Shown here: positions 1-49,318 of the stretch, piece after piece
Layout of the letters: the number at the start of each line of letters is the position of its first letter
Numbering within the stretch: the stretch's first letter is position 1
DNA from: a virus
IMG/VR virus record: IMGVR_UViG_3300035137_000063
Span: 1-49,318 of that record
Length of the DNA: 49,318 nt
Reading direction: 5' to 3' (one strand)
Notes under the pieces: generated by a model
Seen by the model: the letters and a program-made list of their open reading frames with translations, nothing else
Database searches by the model: none
Told to the model about the DNA's origin: nothing
Program-made: the position numbers and the translations under genes

Positions 1-127
1 GCCTCCAGTGCAGCAGCCGCCTCCAGTGCAGCAGCCGCCTCCAGTGCAGCAGCCGCCTCCAGTGCAGCAGCCGCCTCCAGTGCAGCAGCCGCCTCCAGTG
101 CAGCAGCCGCCTCCAGTGCAGCAGCCG
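1..127 (+). repeat. 18-bp in-frame tandem repeat (PPVQQP)n with 6 full units plus partial units. It is the same array as 49192-49318.
   Basis: Direct reading: unit gtgcagcagccgcctcca starts at 8, 26, 44, 62, 80 and 98, and diverges after 116. Positions 1-116 equal 49203-49318. Confidence 0.95.
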
Positions 128-445
128 ACGCAGGCAGCGATGTCGGCACAGGGCCAATACGGCGGTCCTCAGGCAGCACAACCTGTCTATCATCAGGTGC
201 CGATCACGCAGGGGTTTCCCCAGCAGCCTCCAACGCAGATGCCCATGCAGCTGCCGCAGGCGCCTCTGCCTCCGCAGCAGCCGACCGTGCAGCCTCCGCA
301 GCCTCCTGGGCCGCCTCCGGCCAATGCGCCTGCGTTGCCGCTGTCGATTCCGGATGCAGTCAAGATCCTGGAGCTCGTTTCGCAGGGGTACCAGGCAGCT
401 GCACAGTACCTACGCGGTAGGATGGACGACGACGTCCCGTTTTAA
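2..445 (+). CDS. 3' part of the Cas4-like nuclease gene that begins at 48271 and spans the window junction. Contains PPVQQP repeats, a P/Q-rich linker and the acidic C-terminal tip ...RGRMDDDVPF.
   Basis: The frame is open from the window start to TAA 443-445. The 18-bp unit (gtg cag cag ccg cct cca) has the same codon phase as in the ORF that runs off the window end. The next gene starts at ATG 448. Confidence 0.75.
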   Translation, partial: PPVQQPPPVQQPPPVQQPPPVQQPPPVQQPPPVQQPPPVQQPTQAAMSAQGQYGGPQAAQPVYHQVPITQGFPQQPPTQMPMQLPQAPLPPQQPTVQPPQPPGPPPANAPALPLSIPDAVKILELVSQGYQAAAQYLRGRMDDDVPF

Positions 446-447
446 GC

Positions 448-5092
<4,645 letters not shown>

Positions 5093-5109
<17 letters not shown>

Positions 5110-5716
5110 GGAAAAGAGAAGATCGGCTTGGTCACAGACCCATCACGGGGCAGCGGTTAACCTGTTGGATCCTGATCCCAGGACAATAGGGTTTCTGGAC
5201 ATCAGCAGGCACCTGTCCAGGATCGTGCGTTATACAGGCGGAGGCGATCCAGCCATTACTGTGGCGGAGCATTGCGTACTCGGATCCAGGATGGTTACCG
5301 ATGCCATTGCGCTTGAGTTTTTGATGCATGATGCCCACGAGTACATAATAGGGGACATCACACGACCTGTTATTGTGGCCGTGCAGTGTATCTGCCTGGA
5401 ACATGGTATGCACGCCGATCCGATAGCGATTATTAAAAACCGTGTGCAGAGGGCCATAGAAAGAAAATGGTCCCTCAAGGGCGGCGGATGGGTGGATAGC
5501 GCCATCAACGAGGCGGATGCCCGCATGCTGCAGACCGAGCGCCTACAGATTCTGGGGCCGCCTCCGCCGCCGTGGTCCCTGTCTGACGGCGTCCCTCCCT
5601 ACGATCTGGCAATCGAAGGTTGGTCGCCGGAACAAGCCGAGTTCGAGTTTAGATCGACCTTCATCGAGCTGGCCACGAAGCGCGGCATCAGATTGACAGG
5701 GGAGCTGTCGCAATGA
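5093..5716 (+). CDS. HD-domain phosphohydrolase (YfbR-type 5'-deoxynucleotidase-like)
   Basis: 207 aa with the H...HD...D pattern (VAEHC ... FLMHDAHEYIIGDI). Overlaps the polymerase 3' end by 17 nt. Confidence 0.65.
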
Positions 5717-6234
5717 AATTGCTGGCTGTGGATCCCGGGGTGCGCGCATGCGGGTGGGCTCAATTCGAGTATGGCTCGAAAGACAGAGTTCGTTTTGCCA
5801 AGCTTGCCGGATGCGGCCTCGTGCAGGATAGTAGGTTGCATACCGAGGAAATGGATCGCTTTGTCAGTATGGGTGTATTACTCAGACGGATCGATTGCGA
5901 GCGATTCGTGATAGAGGCGCCGCAGATCTACCGAGCCGGCCGGCAGAAGGGCAGGCAGTCCGACATTGCTCGCCTGCTCGTGCTGTGCGGCGTGCTGTGC
6001 GGCGTGCGCGGATATGGCGAGCTCGTGTTGCCGCACGATTGGAAAGGCGGCACCCCGAAGCCGGACAAGGCGTCTGATATCGAAAGCTACATCGTGCACC
6101 GGCGCAACGCGAGGACCCTCGGTAAGGGCTATTTGCCAAGGGCCGTGCCCCCCGGGAAGGCGCACAACGTGGCGGACGCGGTCGGTCTGGGCCTGTGGCG
6201 TGTGCGGCAATTGTTGACGGACACGCGACCGTAG
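5713..6234 (+). CDS. RuvC-fold Holliday junction resolvase
   Basis: 173 aa. MKLLAVDPG (Asp), FVIEAPQ (Glu), HNVADAVGLG (His/Asp). ATGA overlap with the upstream gene. Confidence 0.7.
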   Translation: MKLLAVDPGVRACGWAQFEYGSKDRVRFAKLAGCGLVQDSRLHTEEMDRFVSMGVLLRRIDCERFVIEAPQIYRAGRQKGRQSDIARLLVLCGVLCGVRGYGELVLPHDWKGGTPKPDKASDIESYIVHRRNARTLGKGYLPRAVPPGKAHNVADAVGLGLWRVRQLLTDTRP

Positions 6235-40977: not shown

Positions 40978-41053
40978 AAGTGCCTATACAAACCGCTATT
41001 CCGTAACCCGGATCCAGCGTAAGTGCTTGTACAAACCACTATTCCGCAACCGG
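40978..41053. repeat. Two ~33-bp direct repeats, start to start 43 bp apart, upstream of the RHH gene (operator/iteron candidates)
   Basis: AAGTGCCTATACAAACCGCTATTCCGTAACCCGG (40978-41011) versus AAGTGCTTGTACAAACCACTATTCCGCAACCGG (41021-41053). About 29 of 34 positions match. Confidence 0.8.
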
Positions 41054-41100
41054 CGCTTTATATGAGCAAACGAGCCATATACACACTACACAGCACACTT

Positions 41101-41212
41101 CAATTTTATAACTTCTATTATATATATATATATATGAACTGTACTATTATATACTACCTTATATATTTATATTTTTATTATAATCCATATAATAATAATA
41201 GTGTATATGTGT
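41101..41212. promoter_or_regulatory. AT-rich island including a (TA)8 run, between the divergent blocks. It probably holds divergent promoters and/or a DNA-unwinding element.
   Basis: Composition contrasts sharply with the flanks. The (TA) run lies at 41119-41135. Confidence 0.5.
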
Positions 41213-41228
41213 TAGAGGCGTGAAACTT

Positions 41229-41258
41229 TTGACAAAAATCAATACATCATAAAAGTAT
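41229..41258 (+). promoter_or_regulatory. Candidate rightward promoter (TTGACA followed by an imperfect -10, TAAAAG or AAGTAT)
   Basis: The -35 hexamer is perfect, but the spacer would be 15 or 18 bp and the -10 element is weak. Confidence 0.3.
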
Positions 41259-41431
41259 CAATCCGTATCTGCGACTACTTGCGTATGCGTGCTGATACAC
41301 AACAGCGCCGCGCCGACTTCCACTTACAATCACATGTACAAAATGTGCGCTCTGGTAGGATGTGGTTGTTTTATCTTGTCGTGCTGTCTTTGCTTTGACT
41401 TCGGTCCTGCTTGTGTGGCACATTTCGGACA

Positions 41432-43930
41432 ATGGGTCCTGGGCAGATGCAATCATTAGAGAACGGCACCGGGCAAAACCCCGCCGTGCCGGGCGCGGCA
41501 TGCGCCGGACCCATCGCATGCCGCGCCACCCATCAAGATGTCGTGGTGTCTCTGTTTGACACCGCGTACGACACGACGCCGAAACCTCTCTCGGTGCCGT
41601 GGCAGGTGCTCCGGGGTGAGCTCTCCAAACTGCGCATCTGCCCGGGCGGGCAGAAGGACAGGCAGCGACGGATCTCCCCCGTCGAGTACTTGCCGGGCGC
41701 GGCGCGATCCTCCCACCAGGTGCGCCGCGCCACTTTCTTTATGGCAGACTTCGACAGTCTGTCTCCCGATCGAATGCAACGCGTGCTGTCGCTGGTGGAG
41801 GGACTCGAATGTTGCATGCACACGACCTGGTCTCATCCGGAGCGCCACGAGGCCGACGGATCATGGTCGTTTCGCCTGGCTATGCCGCTGTCCAGGCCGG
41901 TGGAGGCGTATGGGTGGCCTGGTTTCTGGGGACGCCTGCAGGTGCTGTTTGAGGGACTGCTTGATCCCCAGTGCCGCGATCTGGCCCGCATGTACATTTT
42001 ACCATGCAGCCCGCGCAGCGATCGGCATTTTTTGTCGCATCAGGAGGGGCAGCCCCTCGATGTCGATGCCATCCTGTCCATGCCCGAGCCTCCACGCGAG
42101 GTGATCGGCGCCGGCACCAGGAAAATCACCCGAGGTGATCTGTCGCAGCTCGCCGCATCGCTCGCCCGCAGCCAGCAGGACGGGGCCAAGGATGTTGCCG
42201 GCATCCTACGGGCGATTGTCAAGGGAGCCTCGTTCGCCGAGCCAGGCAACCGGGACATGGCGATGTTCATGGCCGCTTCGAGGATTGCGGCGAGGTGGCC
42301 CGATGCCGATGCCGCGTCGGTGGCGGGCCTTGTCCGACCATCGCTTGCGGTAATGGCGAGGGAGGCGCCGGACTGCCCCGGGCCTGAGGTATTTGAGGAC
42401 AAGGTGCGGCGCGCATGCGCGCGCGTGGCGGAGGATCAAGCGCGCATGCAGGCCGCCCGGCAGGCGGCGCTCGTCCATGACATCAGGGAGGCCTTTGGGG
42501 GATTGCGATCAGAACCTTACAGCAAAGAGGAGCTTGAGGGGTTTGCCGCTGACATGGGATGCACGGTGGACGATTTGCGCAACCGGTGGATAGTGCAACT
42601 CGAAAACCGTTACTATATCTTTAAAGACGGATCATACATGCCGACCGTCTGCGACTCGATGCTGCCGCCGGCGGCTGCCCGGGATCTGGCGCCGGCGTCA
42701 TCCGCCGGTGTCGGGACATGGGTGATCGACAAAGAGGGTAGGGCCAGACACAAACGGCGATCGGAGCTCATGGAGGATTACGGGACGGTTGCGAGACACT
42801 TGCGGATAGATCTCTGCGCCAGCAAGACGCGCTTCGATCCGACTGGCGATCTGATTGTTGAGGCTCCCTGTCCACCGCGCAAGTTGGAGCCGCGCTATGA
42901 TCCCGATGTGGCCAGGTGGTTAGAGGCTCTGGGGGGCCCGCAGCACGAGAAGCTTTTGGATTGGGTGGCGGTGGTTACTTTGCTGGATCAGCCGGCTGCC
43001 ATCTTGTATCTCGACGGGCCCAAGGACGTGGGCAAGGGGCTGCTGGCCAGGGGCCTGTCGCGTCTTTGGATAGAGGGCGGTCCCACAGACATGGCGCATC
43101 TGTGCAAGGGTTGGAATGACGCGCTGTTGCGGTGCCCCTTGATATTCGCCGATGAGGAGCTCCCGGAGCGCAACTTGAAGAAGGCCAGCACTCCGTGGCT
43201 CAGATCGCTGGTGCAAGAGAGGGACAGGATCTTGTCACGCAAGTATGCGCATCACGACACCGTGGTGCACGGGTGCATGCGACTCATGATGGCGGCTAAC
43301 AACCGGCACCTGCTGGACGCGTATGAAAATCTGACCAGCGAGGACATCGATGCGGTGGTGGATCGGTTTTTGTACATTCACACGGACGCCAGCGCGGCCG
43401 CGGTGCTCGAGTCCGTCGGTCCGCAGGGGCGTCATGCGATGGTTGAGGGCGATGCGATAGCCAGGCATGCGCTGTGGTTGCGCGACAACCGGCCTGTGGA
43501 CAGGAGCAGAAGGTTTTTGGCGGCCGGTGTGGACAGCGCGTTTCATCGCGGGTTGGCGATAGGGCAGGGGCTGCCGTCGGCCGTGTGCAATTGGTGCTGT
43601 GCGTACCTGTTGGATCCCATGCGTATGGATGCCACGAGGCAGGGAGGAGTACGCATAGAAAAAGGACGGCTGTTGATCACGTCAAAGGCTTTGCTCGAGT
43701 GCTGGGACATGTACACGACCCACGAGAAGCCCCCGAGCCTGCGCAGGTTGGGCATGGCTGTAGTCTCATTGAGTAGTGGAGATCGGCACTACAGGAGAAC
43801 TGCGGACGGGAGGGGCGTGCAGTATAGGGAGATTGACGGCGACAAGCTTCTGCAATGGGCTTTGGACACAGGTTACTGTACCGAAGAAGATCTAATCCTG
43901 GCATTGTGCCGGGATACGAAGGAGGTGTGA
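41432..43930 (+). CDS. Primase-helicase fusion: AEP (primase-polymerase)-like N-terminal domain plus SF3/D5-type P-loop helicase
   Basis: FFMADFD (DxD) and MHTTWSH (sxH) in the N-terminal domain. Walker A LDGPKDVGKG and Walker B PLIFADEE. ATG 41432 is in frame with the ORF-track GTG at 41411. Confidence 0.8.
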   Translation: MGPGQMQSLENGTGQNPAVPGAACAGPIACRATHQDVVVSLFDTAYDTTPKPLSVPWQVLRGELSKLRICPGGQKDRQRRISPVEYLPGAARSSHQVRRATFFMADFDSLSPDRMQRVLSLVEGLECCMHTTWSHPERHEADGSWSFRLAMPLSRPVEAYGWPGFWGRLQVLFEGLLDPQCRDLARMYILPCSPRSDRHFLSHQEGQPLDVDAILSMPEPPREVIGAGTRKITRGDLSQLAASLARSQQDGAKDVAGILRAIVKGASFAEPGNRDMAMFMAASRIAARWPDADAASVAGLVRPSLAVMAREAPDCPGPEVFEDKVRRACARVAEDQARMQAARQAALVHDIREAFGGLRSEPYSKEELEGFAADMGCTVDDLRNRWIVQLENRYYIFKDGSYMPTVCDSMLPPAAARDLAPASSAGVGTWVIDKEGRARHKRRSELMEDYGTVARHLRIDLCASKTRFDPTGDLIVEAPCPPRKLEPRYDPDVARWLEALGGPQHEKLLDWVAVVTLLDQPAAILYLDGPKDVGKGLLARGLSRLWIEGGPTDMAHLCKGWNDALLRCPLIFADEELPERNLKKASTPWLRSLVQERDRILSRKYAHHDTVVHGCMRLMMAANNRHLLDAYENLTSEDIDAVVDRFLYIHTDASAAAVLESVGPQGRHAMVEGDAIARHALWLRDNRPVDRSRRFLAAGVDSAFHRGLAIGQGLPSAVCNWCCAYLLDPMRMDATRQGGVRIEKGRLLITSKALLECWDMYTTHEKPPSLRRLGMAVVSLSSGDRHYRRTADGRGVQYREIDGDKLLQWALDTGYCTEEDLILALCRDTKEV

Positions 43931-44500: not shown

Positions 44501-45016
44501 ATGATCCACGAGACGGCACGAGTACACCCATCCGCCGATATAGACGCCTGGGCCAGCGTGGGCGCCGATGCCCGCGTGGGCGCCTGGGCCCGCGTGGGCG
44601 CCTGGGCCCGCGTGGGCGCCTTCGCCCGCGTGGGCGCCGATGCCCGCGTGGGCGCCGATGCCCACGTAGGCCCCGGGGCCCACGTAGGCCCCGGGGCCCA
44701 CGTAGGCCCCGATGCCCACGTAGGCCCCGGGGCCCGCGTAGGCCCCGGGGCCCACGTAGGCCCCGATGCCCACGTAGGCCCCGGGGCCTACGTAGGCCCC
44801 GGGGCCTACGTGGGCGCCGGGAGATCCGTGCTGGTGATCCACGGTTACGAATACACAGTGACCATCTGCGACGATCTCGTGTCCGTAGGGTGTAAAACAG
44901 CCTCATTGGAGAAATGGAAAGAGGGCTGGGCACCGGAATCGGCCCCGCGGCTGGAGAGGGATAGGGATCTGCTGGTGGCTCTAGCGGAGGCGCACCAAGC
45001 CGGAGCGGCAAAATGA
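44501..45016 (+). CDS. Hexapeptide-repeat (left-handed beta-helix type) protein with a small C-terminal domain
   Basis: About 17 consecutive xAxVGx hexads (ARVGAW, AHVGPG and similar) follow IHETARVHPSADID. AGGAGG lies 5 nt upstream. Confidence 0.7.
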   Translation: MIHETARVHPSADIDAWASVGADARVGAWARVGAWARVGAFARVGADARVGADAHVGPGAHVGPGAHVGPDAHVGPGARVGPGAHVGPDAHVGPGAYVGPGAYVGAGRSVLVIHGYEYTVTICDDLVSVGCKTASLEKWKEGWAPESAPRLERDRDLLVALAEAHQAGAAK

Positions 45017-45831
45017 AGGGCACCGGAGATCAGACAAAGGGTTTGTGCGGTACATGCGCTCATTGGGTGCCGACCCTAAAAAGCGATCGTCGGTTTTGCA
45101 AGAGAATCTTTTACAGATCGTTTGTGACCCGTGATCATACCGGACTAATCACCGGTTGCGACGATTACAAAAAAGCAAAGCAGTGCGACGTGATGGGCGA
45201 GGTCCTGGAAGGTGTACGTTCGCTGTGTCATGAATGCCAGCGGTTTGCCGGTGGGGAGTGTACGCACGGCTGGAAACCCAATATCTACAGAACAACGTCT
45301 ACTGGAGGCTATTGGGAGTGTACTGGAGTAGTGCCTCTGTACCGGAAACCGAAACCTCCGCAATTTAAGGAGCCTTCCGAACCGAAAGCCACCCGAATGC
45401 AAGAGATGCTTGAGGAGCTACGGGAATGGCTCGATGCAAGATCGAAGCGGTTAGGTTTTGTGTGCGATCAGATATCCGACTCGGAACCTGCCGAGGCCGA
45501 TCCGCCAAGACAAGAATCTTCCAAACCTGCGGGTATCGGTGACGAGCAAGGCTTGTATTCTCTGGATGCGATAAAACTAGCCCATGGTAATACCGAAATA
45601 ACCGGGTTTCTCAAATACAATTGCGCTTGGGATTCGGAGGGCAGGACAACCTGCGGCCACGTGGCCAAGCTCGAATCGAGACTATCCAAGGCCAAGCGGT
45701 TATTGCATCGGCTGCTTGCAAAAGATCTCTGTCACCGTAAAAGCCTCTATCTGGGAGGTTGTCGCCCGGATTGTCCGGCTTGCGCGGTGCAAAAGTTCTT
45801 GGAGAATGACGATGACAAAAAAGAGAGATGA
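45013..45831 (+). CDS. Cys-rich hypothetical protein
   Basis: 272 aa. Two CxxC...C...C modules (LCGTCAHW...C...GC and LCHECQRF...C...C). ATGA overlap start. Confidence 0.55.
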   Translation: MKGTGDQTKGLCGTCAHWVPTLKSDRRFCKRIFYRSFVTRDHTGLITGCDDYKKAKQCDVMGEVLEGVRSLCHECQRFAGGECTHGWKPNIYRTTSTGGYWECTGVVPLYRKPKPPQFKEPSEPKATRMQEMLEELREWLDARSKRLGFVCDQISDSEPAEADPPRQESSKPAGIGDEQGLYSLDAIKLAHGNTEITGFLKYNCAWDSEGRTTCGHVAKLESRLSKAKRLLHRLLAKDLCHRKSLYLGGCRPDCPACAVQKFLENDDDKKER

Positions 45832-46366
45832 TCTGCTGTTGTGGATTGACATCGAGACGACCGGTCTGGATCCGTATGGTGACGCGATGCTCGAGATTGC
45901 CGCAATGGTGACCGACAGGGATCTCAAAATCGTGGCGCCGCTGCGCAACCATGTGCTGCACCATTGCACGGACAGCCTGGAGATGTCCGATTATGTGTGG
46001 AAGACACATTCGGTGTCCGGTCTGTTGGACGAGGTGTACAGATCGGACATAGACTCCGTCAGGTGGCGCTGGGATGTGGAGGACGCGCTGTGTCTGTGGT
46101 TGTCGGCCATTGCCGAGCCTGGCACGTTAACGCCCGCGGGCAACTCCGTCAATTTCGATGTAGGGTTTTTGCGCGTGCACATGCCGCGTCTCTACGGCAT
46201 GCTCCACTATAGGCAGCTCAACGTGTCGTCGATTGCTTTGTGCGCCGGATGGTGGTTTGGTGATCTGTTCGAGAAGCAAAAGGCTCACCGGGCCGCTTCC
46301 GATTTGTTGGAGAGCTACGGCGAGCTCTGTTGGCTGCGCGATCATATGGATTGGCGGATTGGCTGA
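45806..46366 (+). CDS. Oligoribonuclease (Orn)-like DEDDh 3'-5' exonuclease
   Basis: LLWIDIETTGLDP (DxE), LEIAAMVTD, GNSVNFDVGFL, HYRQLNVSS and AHRAASDLLES. The start is ATG 45806 or 45812. Confidence 0.8.
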   Translation: MTMTKKRDDLLLWIDIETTGLDPYGDAMLEIAAMVTDRDLKIVAPLRNHVLHHCTDSLEMSDYVWKTHSVSGLLDEVYRSDIDSVRWRWDVEDALCLWLSAIAEPGTLTPAGNSVNFDVGFLRVHMPRLYGMLHYRQLNVSSIALCAGWWFGDLFEKQKAHRAASDLLESYGELCWLRDHMDWRIG

Positions 46367-47898: not shown

Positions 47899-48274
47899 CT
47901 TGGACAAGGCTCGCGTACAACAGTGCGAGTTCAACGACCGAAACAAGATCGAACCGATGATCAACGTGCAGGCGATTAGGTTTCACGACGGAAGGCATGC
48001 GGCGATCATGCGTGTGCGCAAGGGCCGCCGCACGGGTGGTCGCAAGATAGGCATGCAAGAACAGGGTTGGTTGGAACTGTGGCCTTTGAACAAGGCTGTG
48101 TTTTGCGCGGGCGAGACGGTGCAGTGTGATGGCACCGATGATCGCGGCAATCCTTGTGTTGTACACCTGCGCATCGGAGGGCCTTGCGGGCCCAAGGGCC
48201 GTTGGCTCAGGGCCCGCAAGGTGCGGGCAGTGCGCAAGATTGAAGTCAAGCTGGGGGACAAGGCCGGTACATGA
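47888..48274 (+). CDS. Basic hypothetical protein (128 aa)
   Basis: ATG 47888 overlaps the upstream gene's 3' end by 11 nt (ATGGACAATGA). The stop overlaps the nuclease start (ATGA). Confidence 0.5.
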   Translation: MDNDLDKARVQQCEFNDRNKIEPMINVQAIRFHDGRHAAIMRVRKGRRTGGRKIGMQEQGWLELWPLNKAVFCAGETVQCDGTDDRGNPCVVHLRIGGPCGPKGRWLRARKVRAVRKIEVKLGDKAGT

Positions 48275-49318
48275 TCCTACCTGGTGTCCAAATCCCTTCT
48301 GCACACAGGCCTGCACATCCCGGTCCTTATGGCTGGGCTCTGGTGTCCTCGTATCCCGTACTGAGTGCTACGCAGATCAACACGTACCTGGACTGCGAGC
48401 GCAAATGGGCGTTGCGGTGGATTGCAGGCCTGCCCGACAAAAAAGACGACGGGCCCAGGGATTTTGGCAAAGAGGTGCACAAGCATCAGGACAGGTGGCT
48501 CAAAGCAGGCATTGCGCCGCCGGACACGCCGACGGGCCGTGTGGCGCAGACGCTGATCAAGTGGCTGCCTTCCCCTGGTTTGGCGCTGCCCGAGTTTCCG
48601 TTTGAATGGCTGCCTAATGGACAGCCTTTCGCGCTGCGAGGTGCGATAGATTGTCTGCAGCTGCAGCCCGACGGCATACCGTGGATAGAGGACACCAAGA
48701 TCACAGGTAGCAACTTCCAATGGATGAAGTCCAGAGATGATCTGTTGGAGGACGTGCAGGCTGTGATCTATGCTGCGTTTGCGCTTCAAAAGTTTTCTTC
48801 ATTGAAGGTGCATTGCAGATGGTTGTACGGCCTGCGCACAAAAAGCAAGCCCAGGCCGGCCAGGCCGGTGGATTTCGAGATGGGCCTCGCACATGTGGCT
48901 GATAGGTTTGGCCTGGTGTGTGAGGTGGCACAAAGGATGGTACTCGCGATAGAGCAGAGAGTGCGTCCGGAGGACATGCCTCCGCGCGACGCATGCAACC
49001 AGTATGGTGGATGTCCGTATATGGGCAATGGATGCGGCATGACGCCGCAAGAAAGGTTTGGTTTGATCATGGCAGAGAACAAGCCACGTGAAATGTCATT
49101 GCAGGAAAAGGTGGCAGCACACATGCAGGCCACCGGTCAATCGCTCCCGGCACAGCCTGTCAACCCGCCGGAGTCCGCCGGGCCGGTGCCGGTGCAGCAG
49201 CCGCCTCCAGTGCAGCAGCCGCCTCCAGTGCAGCAGCCGCCTCCAGTGCAGCAGCCGCCTCCAGTGCAGCAGCCGCCTCCAGTGCAGCAGCCGCCTCCAG
49301 TGCAGCAGCCGCCTCCAG
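48271..49318 (+). CDS. Cas4-like PD-(D/E)XK exonuclease, 5' part. The ORF runs off the window end into the PPVQQP repeat and continues at 2..445.
   Basis: My codon-by-codon translation found no stop. Motifs: YLDCERKW (Cys1), AIDCL, IEDTKI (D-x-K), QAVIYA (QxxxY) and CNQYGGCPYMGNGC (three more Cys). Confidence 0.8.
   Translation, partial: MILPGVQIPSAHRPAHPGPYGWALVSSYPVLSATQINTYLDCERKWALRWIAGLPDKKDDGPRDFGKEVHKHQDRWLKAGIAPPDTPTGRVAQTLIKWLPSPGLALPEFPFEWLPNGQPFALRGAIDCLQLQPDGIPWIEDTKITGSNFQWMKSRDDLLEDVQAVIYAAFALQKFSSLKVHCRWLYGLRTKSKPRPARPVDFEMGLAHVADRFGLVCEVAQRMVLAIEQRVRPEDMPPRDACNQYGGCPYMGNGCGMTPQERFGLIMAENKPREMSLQEKVAAHMQATGQSLPAQPVNPPESAGPVPVQQPPPVQQPPPVQQPPPVQQPPPVQQPPPVQQPPPVQQPPP
49192..49318 (+). 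repeat. 18-bp in-frame tandem repeat, 7 units, truncated by the window end
   Basis: Units start at 49192, 49210, ... 49300. Positions 49203-49318 equal 1-116. Confidence 0.95.

Follow-up and report, generated by a model that had tools for sequence, protein, structure and literature searches.

Background

The C-terminal peptide (SSB-Ct) of SSB, the bacterial protein that binds single-stranded DNA, is a central recruitment signal of bacterial genome maintenance and an antibiotic target; in solved SSB-Ct complexes, the terminal phenylalanine and its free carboxylate are the key contacts. Among phages, the tail of T7 gp2.5 is similar to that of T7 gp4, both ending in phenylalanine, and the tails of SSB, T7 gp2.5 and T4 gp32 have been described as autoinhibitory DNA mimics. 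Here we analyse a gene in the IMG/VR virus record IMGVR_UViG_3300035137_000063, positions 1 to 49,318 (by "the window" we mean this whole stretch of 49,318 nucleotides), whose product starts with a nuclease domain of the RecB/Cas4 family and ends, after a long P/Q-rich linker, in MDDDVPF. Judged by its sequence and that of its relatives, this fusion exists and is conserved; a docking peptide that is known in itself sits on a new carrier, and the combination is restricted to one small group of phages, all uncultured.

Four bodies of earlier work are relevant. Bacterial SSB recruits many partners through its last residues, …DDDIPF (PMC7145534, PMC5872125), the partners of SSB-Ct in E. coli number at least 17 (PMC7145534, PMC10018359), and an SSB tail transplanted onto PriB stays functional (PMC8509808). 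In phage T7, the gp4 helicase has negatively charged C-terminal tails that dock on the T7 DNA polymerase at patches of positive charge (PMC8472574). In phage λ, one small domain, the C-terminal domain of the annealase Redβ, binds Exo as well as the tail of host SSB (PMC6393309). Finally, DUF669 was put forward by Kazlauskas et al. (2016) as a family of SSBs whose tails are acidic (PMC4889955).

Gene structure across the circular junction

The nuclease gene lies on the + strand and runs from 48271 to 49318, joined to 1 to 445, with a minimal product of 458 aa. Its 5' part (48271..49318) contains the start codon (the orthologous gene of contig L001 starts MILPGVQVP), the nuclease domain, the start of the linker and the first 127 nt of a tandem array. 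The window is a circularly permuted phage genome whose assembly was broken inside this array, a perfect 18-nt tandem repeat encoding VQQPPP units. Each end of the window consists of 127 nt of pure repeat (upstream 49192..49318, downstream 1..127, both +, the latter in a reading frame from position 2), 100% perfect according to Tandem Repeats Finder, which counts 7.1 copies at 100% match in the upstream end. Repeat ends of exactly this length probably reflect a de Bruijn assembler with k=127 that broke inside a longer array. Phase analysis shows that the array is entered at codon position 1 (GTG CAG CAG CCG CCT CCA, i.e. VQQPPP) and left after codon position 3 (…CCG|ACG), the following codons being ACG CAG GCA (TQA). 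The array measures 18n+12 nt, and therefore any whole number of hidden units preserves the nuclease reading frame; it comprises at least 138 nt, or at least 7.67 units.

The two ends are joined by the IMG/VR contig L002, which is 93% identical to the window at the DNA level and crosses the junction contiguously: its positions 1-809 correspond to window positions 48445-49253 and its positions 745-3222 to window positions 59-2536. In L002 we observed a single open reading frame (ORF), …PVPVQQPPPVQQPPPVQQPPPVQQQTQAAMSAQ…RGRMDDDVPF, which is 72 nt (4 units) shorter than the minimal version of the window. In two other contigs, L001 (50.4 kb) and L085, the nuclease gene is intact in mid-contig, with the same neighbours, and is followed by a helicase of 610-612 aa. 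The repeat phase, the L002 bridge and the intact genes of L001 and L085 rule out that the fusion was created in assembly or that the contig ends hold two separate genes. A previous reading of the window from its letters alone (hereafter the sequence-only reading) had joined nuclease and tail in frame across this junction, which the repeat phase and the uninterrupted L002 frame confirm; it had also counted at least 7 PPVQQP units, where the repeat itself is present and the number is corrected to at least 7.67 units.

The nuclease core (approximately aa 29-257; 48355..49041, +) was assigned to the RecB/Cas4-family PD-(D/E)XK nucleases by PF12705, PHROGs, invariant columns, AlphaFold2 (AF2) and Foldseek. 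It matches PF12705 (PDDEXK_1) with 48.6 bits (gathering cut-off 22, E 1.3e-12) and the exonuclease families phrog_1218 and phrog_69. In an alignment of 10 sequences, down to 29% identity, residues D127 (48649-51), D141-T-K143 (48691-99) and Q163xxxY167 are invariant. Three cysteines, C242 (48994-96), C248 (49012-14) and C255 (49033-35), are likewise invariant and a fourth, C42 (48394-96), is nearly so; the resulting pattern, one N-terminal and three C-terminal, fits that predicted for the Fe-S 'iron staple' of RecB/Cas4 nucleases. In the AF2 model of the orthologue P0002, the core has a pLDDT of ~90, and Foldseek searches with this model returned, at probability 1.0, ACE1 (Cas4 family), AdnA, AddB, RecE, MGME1, Cas4 (8d3l, 4ic1) and Exo5. 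The PD-(D/E)XK/Cas4-type N-terminal domain with four cysteines that the sequence-only reading had described is thus recovered by Pfam, by the invariant motifs and by structure prediction. We stress that this is not CRISPR Cas4 proper (NCBIfam TIGR00372): the window protein is without any NCBIfam match, a distant relative, P0005, reaches 19 bits against a TIGR00372 cut-off of 65, and the genomic context is a phage replication module, not CRISPR/Cas1-Cas2. By its conserved motifs, the nuclease is a catalytically intact Fe-S enzyme of the RecB/Cas4 family belonging to the phage replication/recombination module.

The C-terminal extension

The linker starts with a linear motif, VNPPE (49159..49173, +), that is nearly invariant across the nuclease family, and continues beyond the array as a non-repetitive, P/Q/A-rich stretch predicted to be disordered (128..337, +), whose length and sequence differ among orthologues. 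Over its whole length of at least 127 aa, the linker contains 46 P and 32 Q (61% P+Q) and 1 charged residue, and its pLDDT is below 50 in the AF2 model of the orthologue. Gain and loss of repeats alters the length of the linker between close relatives, as expected for a tether and not for a fold. The C-terminal module that follows consists of the last 35 residues (338-442), of which the first part is an amphipathic helix, PLSIPDAVKILELVSQGYQAAAQYLRGR (338..421, +; 76% mean column identity in 5 orthologues, predicted helix at 415-439 in P0002), and the second the tip, MDDDVPF, with its TAA stop (422..445, +); the gene ends in RGRMDDDVPF, with the stop at 443-445. Between the window and L002, the helix codons differ by 5 synonymous changes and 1 non-synonymous change, and the module is, by this measure, under purifying selection.

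We compared the tail with two traits of bacterial SSBs, a P/Q-rich disordered linker and an acidic tip ending in [IL]-P-F-COOH, and observed both. The DDDVPF of the window differs from the bacterial DDD[IL]PF by a conservative valine at the [IL] position; this consensus is that of bacteria in general. As far as can be predicted, the extension shares its physical design with the C-terminal half of bacterial SSB, namely an uncharged, P/Q-rich, predicted disordered tether followed by an acidic-[IV]-P-F-COOH end. No OB-fold core was found in the polypeptide by Pfam, AF2 or Foldseek, the nuclease being its sole folded domain. The three parts named in the sequence-only reading, nuclease, P/Q-rich linker and tip, are seen in the window gene and in its complete relatives. 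Its description of the tail as SSB-style is right for the last 6-10 residues, which are SSB-like, but not for the 25-aa amphipathic helix before the tip, which is unlike SSB. A weak Pfam match of the tail, to DUF6511, stayed below the cut-off of 28 with 16 bits (E 0.015) and was treated as noise.

We lean modestly towards the hypothesis that the tip docks in the manner of SSB-Ct, at the end of a tether that is long and flexible. Its terminal phenylalanine and free carboxylate would plug into the site of SSB-interacting proteins that is made of a hydrophobic pocket and a basic rim, and the tether of at least 127 aa would let the nuclease reach DNA ends or flaps near the docked partner; docking would in this way link the nuclease with a helicase or polymerase, or with a fork that has stalled or broken. 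As to the partner, a host SSB-interacting protein is slightly favoured, because the window tip has the bacterial consensus form and the probable SSBs of the same module in distant relatives bear such tips (see below); the main alternative is one of the phage's own proteins, the adjacent helicase or PolA. The sequence-only reading had likewise suggested host SSB partners or the phage helicase or polymerase as docking sites, which stays a hypothesis.

The fit to a host-type consensus would also suit a decoy: by occupying SSB-interacting proteins in competition with host SSB, the tail would disable the host's repair, restart or nucleases, and nuclease activity would be incidental. Mimicry of the host's short linear motifs is a strategy that viruses use in general. 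However, outcompeting the abundant tetrameric SSB would take a high copy number, the weaker acidic tips of the orthologues would make poor competitors, and an intact Fe-S nuclease with conserved catalytic residues would be left unexplained as the carrier, so that we consider a decoy very improbable. We give as little credence to an autoinhibitory DNA mimic, in which the acidic tip would fold into the nuclease's own DNA groove until displaced by a partner or substrate. The acidic residues do sit on a long flexible tether, and tails that compete with single-stranded DNA (ssDNA) are known for gp2.5 and SSB. Yet only 3 of the last 10 residues are acidic, with R-G-R before them, it is the IPF and not the acidic content that is conserved, and AF2 places neither helix nor tip confidently on the core (weak evidence). 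The intact catalytic residues, the few acidic residues and the conservation of IPF rather than of the acidic run together make both of these explanations less likely than docking.

Distribution of the extension

In a search of 5.8 billion proteins we found nine homologues of the nuclease. Four of them are close (66-84% identity), each combining the nuclease, a non-repetitive P/Q linker, the helix and the tip in a single ORF; the tips read …RNKMDDIPF, …RNRADTDIPF, …RSRADDSVPF and …RTRAEAEKNIPF; a fragment that covers only the C-terminus, P0010, provides a further MDDIPF tip. The helix and an [IV]PF-COOH end are present in all 7 sequences of the clade, including the end-cut L002, and the linker is strongly diverged. 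The sequence-only reading had stated beforehand that homologues with the tail in a separate gene would speak against the fusion; tail and nuclease form a single gene, in one ORF, in every complete relative, which rules out a normally separate tail for this clade. Of the D-D-D-[IV]-P-F tip that it had proposed to look for in homologues, the [IV]PF-COOH end is kept and the D-D-D run is not conserved (EKNIPF in P0004). Since the acidic run degrades in orthologues, the DDDVPF of the window is the best match of the clade.

The C-terminal module was not seen elsewhere: a profile of it, searched against the 5.8 billion proteins, found beyond the known clade only the fragment P0010, and two metagenome scans for the module on other proteins returned nothing. 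Likewise, tblastn searches for cultured relatives with the nuclease, the OB protein described below and PolA against 50,697 phage records gave no match.

The nuclease family as a whole is large, comprising 7392 representatives at E ≤ 1e-3 in a profile search of 1.84 billion cluster representatives. Among the best 150 of these 7392 members, ends of the form xPF occur only in the window clade and in the lineage of P0152, a second nuclease lineage that independently ends in helix-…AIADGIPF; none of ~80 IMG/VR relatives outside the clade has an xPF end. The motif [IV]NPP is found in 142/154 family sequences, where its median distance past the GGCPY Cys motif is 73 aa, and the family consensus of the linker is G-[IV]-N-P-P-E-x-A-L-P-P-A-P-P-V-G. 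The other C-termini of the family include bare amphipathic helices, a globular module of ~80-95 aa with the pattern '…(L/F)(Y/F)VDC.P…S(M/T)(S/R).TPEG…VVRG(F/L/M)', and others, none of these being known to Pfam. Modules of this …VVRGF type, for which there is no Pfam match, are carried by P0005, P0006, P0013, P0021, P0035, P0078, P0087 and many IMG/VR loci (e.g. L053-L071).

With C-termini this diverse ('…VVRGF' domains, bare amphipathic helices, others), with the helix present in tip-less members too, and with an acidic part that is variable and decays in P0004 and P0152, the helix and IPF could be one of many clade-specific partner-binding C-terminal modules, mechanistically unrelated to SSB-Ct. 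Two observations make such a coincidence seem remote to us: the IPF end occurs in two nuclease lineages, against a chance estimated at ~0.05% per protein, and acidic residues accompany all [ILVM]PF termini in our data set, two of which belong to probable SSB-family proteins from modules of this type.

Several points nonetheless weigh against docking by an SSB-type tip. The acidic run varies, reading AEAEKNIPF in P0004 and ADGIPF in P0152, and a basic R-x-R/K stands just upstream of the tip. In the AF2 model the pLDDT of the tip is below 50, with a shallow alignment. The clade is tiny, with 7 sequences in the 5.8 billion proteins. Moreover, the helix has no SSB counterpart and is also found in tip-less relatives, so the selected unit could be helix and tip together, binding a phage-specific partner.

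The replication module

In gene order, the module comprises a primase-helicase … the nuclease, a helicase, a probable OB-fold protein, PolA and a RuvC-like resolvase. The helicase (612 aa; 448..2286, +; phrog_62 'DNA helicase', E 7e-9; no PDB sequence match) is a candidate partner of the tip; its start lies 2 nt past the nuclease stop, and it is always the next gene in the clade (L001, L002, L085). A second candidate partner is the family-A DNA polymerase (PolA), which has a 3'-5' exonuclease domain (3157..5109, +; PF00476 E 2e-19, phrog_17 E 6e-40, PDB matches to Pol I).

These neighbours bear on an intra-replisome tail in the manner of T7, in which the tip would dock on basic patches of the phage PolA, on the adjacent helicase or in the DNA groove of the tail-less OB protein, and give rise to a helicase-nuclease or polymerase-nuclease assembly. 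The T7 gp4 tails provide the precedent (PMC8472574). The gap of 2 nt between nuclease stop and helicase start, the invariance of this gene pair in the clade, the presence of PolA in the genome and the lack of an acidic tip on the window's own OB-family protein all speak for it, as does the wide variation of the nuclease C-terminal modules next to constant neighbours, which resembles co-evolving contacts internal to the phage. On the other hand, a phage-internal contact need not copy the bacterial DDD[IL]PF, and the T7 tails are long, poly-acidic and without Pro-Phe, whereas here 2-3 acidic residues follow a basic R-x-R. The tip-less relatives, furthermore, keep the same helicase, OB protein and PolA as neighbours. 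We regard a T7-like tail as possible, though on the unlikely side.

Between helicase and polymerase lies the gene of a 293-aa protein (2318..3199, +), a candidate non-canonical OB-fold SSB that has no C-terminal tip. It contains an N-terminal 30-nt array (2348..2693, 11.5 units) and a conserved domain of ~150 aa (aa 138-283). The number of repeats is ~7 in L002/P0011 and ~6 in P0012, and L001 has another pattern. A local hmmsearch found 67 ORFs of this family downstream of the nuclease across 84 loci. Two distant members bear a tip: in L003 (7272..8369), the protein, which matches that of the window by BLASTP with E 2e-10, starts with the domain and continues with a P/Q/G linker of ~165 aa to the end …GPPGDDNIPF, and in L027 (8879..9391) the domain is followed by …TNDDDDANDLPF (tip …DDDDANDLPF). 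Many other members bear short acidic tails.

The AF2 model of the 293-aa protein is of low confidence (pLDDT 53), which we attribute to the small number of sequences behind it, only 2 near-identical homologues; it has the element order β-β-β-α-β-β. Foldseek returned mostly bacterial SSBs and other OB folds, at non-significant values (E of at least 0.014). Within the family, phrog_378 'single strand DNA binding protein' was matched by 1/28 members (E 0.001) and DUF669 by 2/28 (E 0.03), both far below threshold; hhalign gave 5% probability against the N4 SSB, and PDB sequence and profile searches with the window protein were negative. We consider that the 293-aa protein is probably, with a good measure of doubt, a non-canonical SSB, and that its family may be the missing SSB of such replication modules. 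The sequence-only reading had seen no SSB in the window. This holds for canonical SSBs, of which Pfam and PHROGs found none in the 30 replication-side ORFs of the window, but not beyond them, since the family of ORF 2318..3199 is conserved, probably has an OB fold and includes some distant members that are tipped.

Among the other DNA-metabolism genes of the module we observed those for a DEDD/RNase T-like exonuclease (phrog_192; 45716..46366), a deoxynucleoside monophosphate (dNMP) phosphatase (phrog_318; 5093..5716) and the RuvC-like resolvase (phrog_159; 5713..6234); no single-strand annealing protein was recognised in the window, and it contains no tRNA genes. A third coding tandem array (44570..44821; 18 nt × 14, 90% identity) lies in ORF 44501..45016, which encodes 171 aa with the hexapeptides GPGAHV / GAWARV and matches phrog_7964 (E 4e-12), for which PHROGs assigns no function. 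A sharp AT-rich island at ~41000..41350 (GC 0.25-0.30, against 0.57 for the genome) lies at the meeting point of the leftward and rightward gene blocks, directly upstream of the gene for the primase/helicase (839 aa; 41411..43930); it could be an origin or an early promoter region.

The tip on other proteins

Across all loci, 3969 mechanical ORFs of at least 80 aa include only 5 distinct genes that end in [ILVM]PF-COOH, each with acidic residues just upstream: the nuclease (window/L002; L001), the OB-family members of L003 and L027, and a kinase in L059. The last is a 406-aa Ser/Thr kinase (L059 10564..11787, -; phrog_2361, E 2e-45) that ends …PTPTADDDDNIPF (…TADDDDNIPF) and adjoins an OB-family gene. 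By its predicted C-terminus, it adds a second kind to the phage enzymes that bear an SSB-type tip without being SSBs. As these ends are rare and always acidic, and occur on nuclease, OB-family protein and kinase, the peptide appears to behave as a portable module in these phages.

In the window genome the nuclease is the only tip-bearing protein, the OB-family protein being without a C-terminal acidic tip. A more far-reaching proposal is that phages graft the SSB C-terminal peptide as a portable 'plug' on non-SSB enzymes and wire them to the host SSB hub. The function of SSB would then be split, with the tail-less OB-fold protein and its N-terminal P/Q repeat coating ssDNA and the nuclease giving the tip in trans; the two could co-assemble via their P/Q-rich regions. 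We put this forward as speculation that we ourselves think rather improbable.

In the searchable full-text literature we found no report of a natural non-SSB protein with an SSB-Ct peptide, only work on SSBs, engineered chimeras and SSB partners. The fusion of a nuclease with an SSB tail is therefore apparently undescribed, in agreement with the sequence-only reading. Eukaryotic viruses are well known for short-linear-motif mimicry; a functional tip would show phages to use the same device on the SSB hub. Such a tip would also offer a simple natural example of a nuclease coupled to helicases or polymerases by a flexible tether, and would justify a systematic census of non-SSB proteins ending in acidic-[ILV]PF. 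Two results are of use for annotation. One is that phage Cas4-like nucleases with the [IV]NPPE motif in their linker, and with C-terminal modules that vary, make up a very large subfamily without a name; the other is a conserved, probably OB-fold family in these replication modules.

Comparison with known systems

With the phage RecB/Cas4-like Fe-S exonucleases (PF12705; PHROG 69, 1218), the window nuclease shares the catalytic D…D/E-x-K and QxxxY motifs, the 1+3 Cys pattern, the fold and the location in the module; unlike them, the large unnamed subfamily to which it belongs adds a disordered linker with [IV]NPPE and a variable C-terminal module. In the λ Exo–Redβ–SSB-Ct system, as possibly here, a phage recombination exonuclease, a partner and the SSB C-terminal peptide are linked, there via one small interaction domain, whereas in the window the exonuclease is itself the carrier of the tail, and we identified no annealase. 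The 293-aa family resembles the DUF669/N4-type SSBs in an OB-like topology predicted at low confidence, its position in the replication module and the short acidic tails of many members, although the window protein has an N-terminal low-complexity repeat and no tip.

A phage parallel for the carrier is T7, where a replication enzyme that is not an SSB (gp4) bears a tail of the phage-SSB type with a critical terminal aromatic residue; the window nuclease also ends in phenylalanine, and its genome also encodes a family-A polymerase. The T7 tails of gp4 and gp2.5, however, are long and poly-acidic, end in …DF, and have neither Pro-Phe nor a long P/Q tether, and the carrier here is a nuclease. In the peptide itself, the likeness is to bacterial SSB: a long, P/Q-rich linker of low charge and variable length leads to a D-D-D-[IV]-P-F-COOH end. 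The differences are that the carrier is a PD-(D/E)XK nuclease and not an OB-fold tetramer, that a 25-aa amphipathic helix and an R-x-R stand between linker and tip, and that the acidic residues are only partly conserved in the orthologues. As no homology is evident beyond the last ~6 residues, the tip of the nuclease is probably convergent with SSB-Ct.

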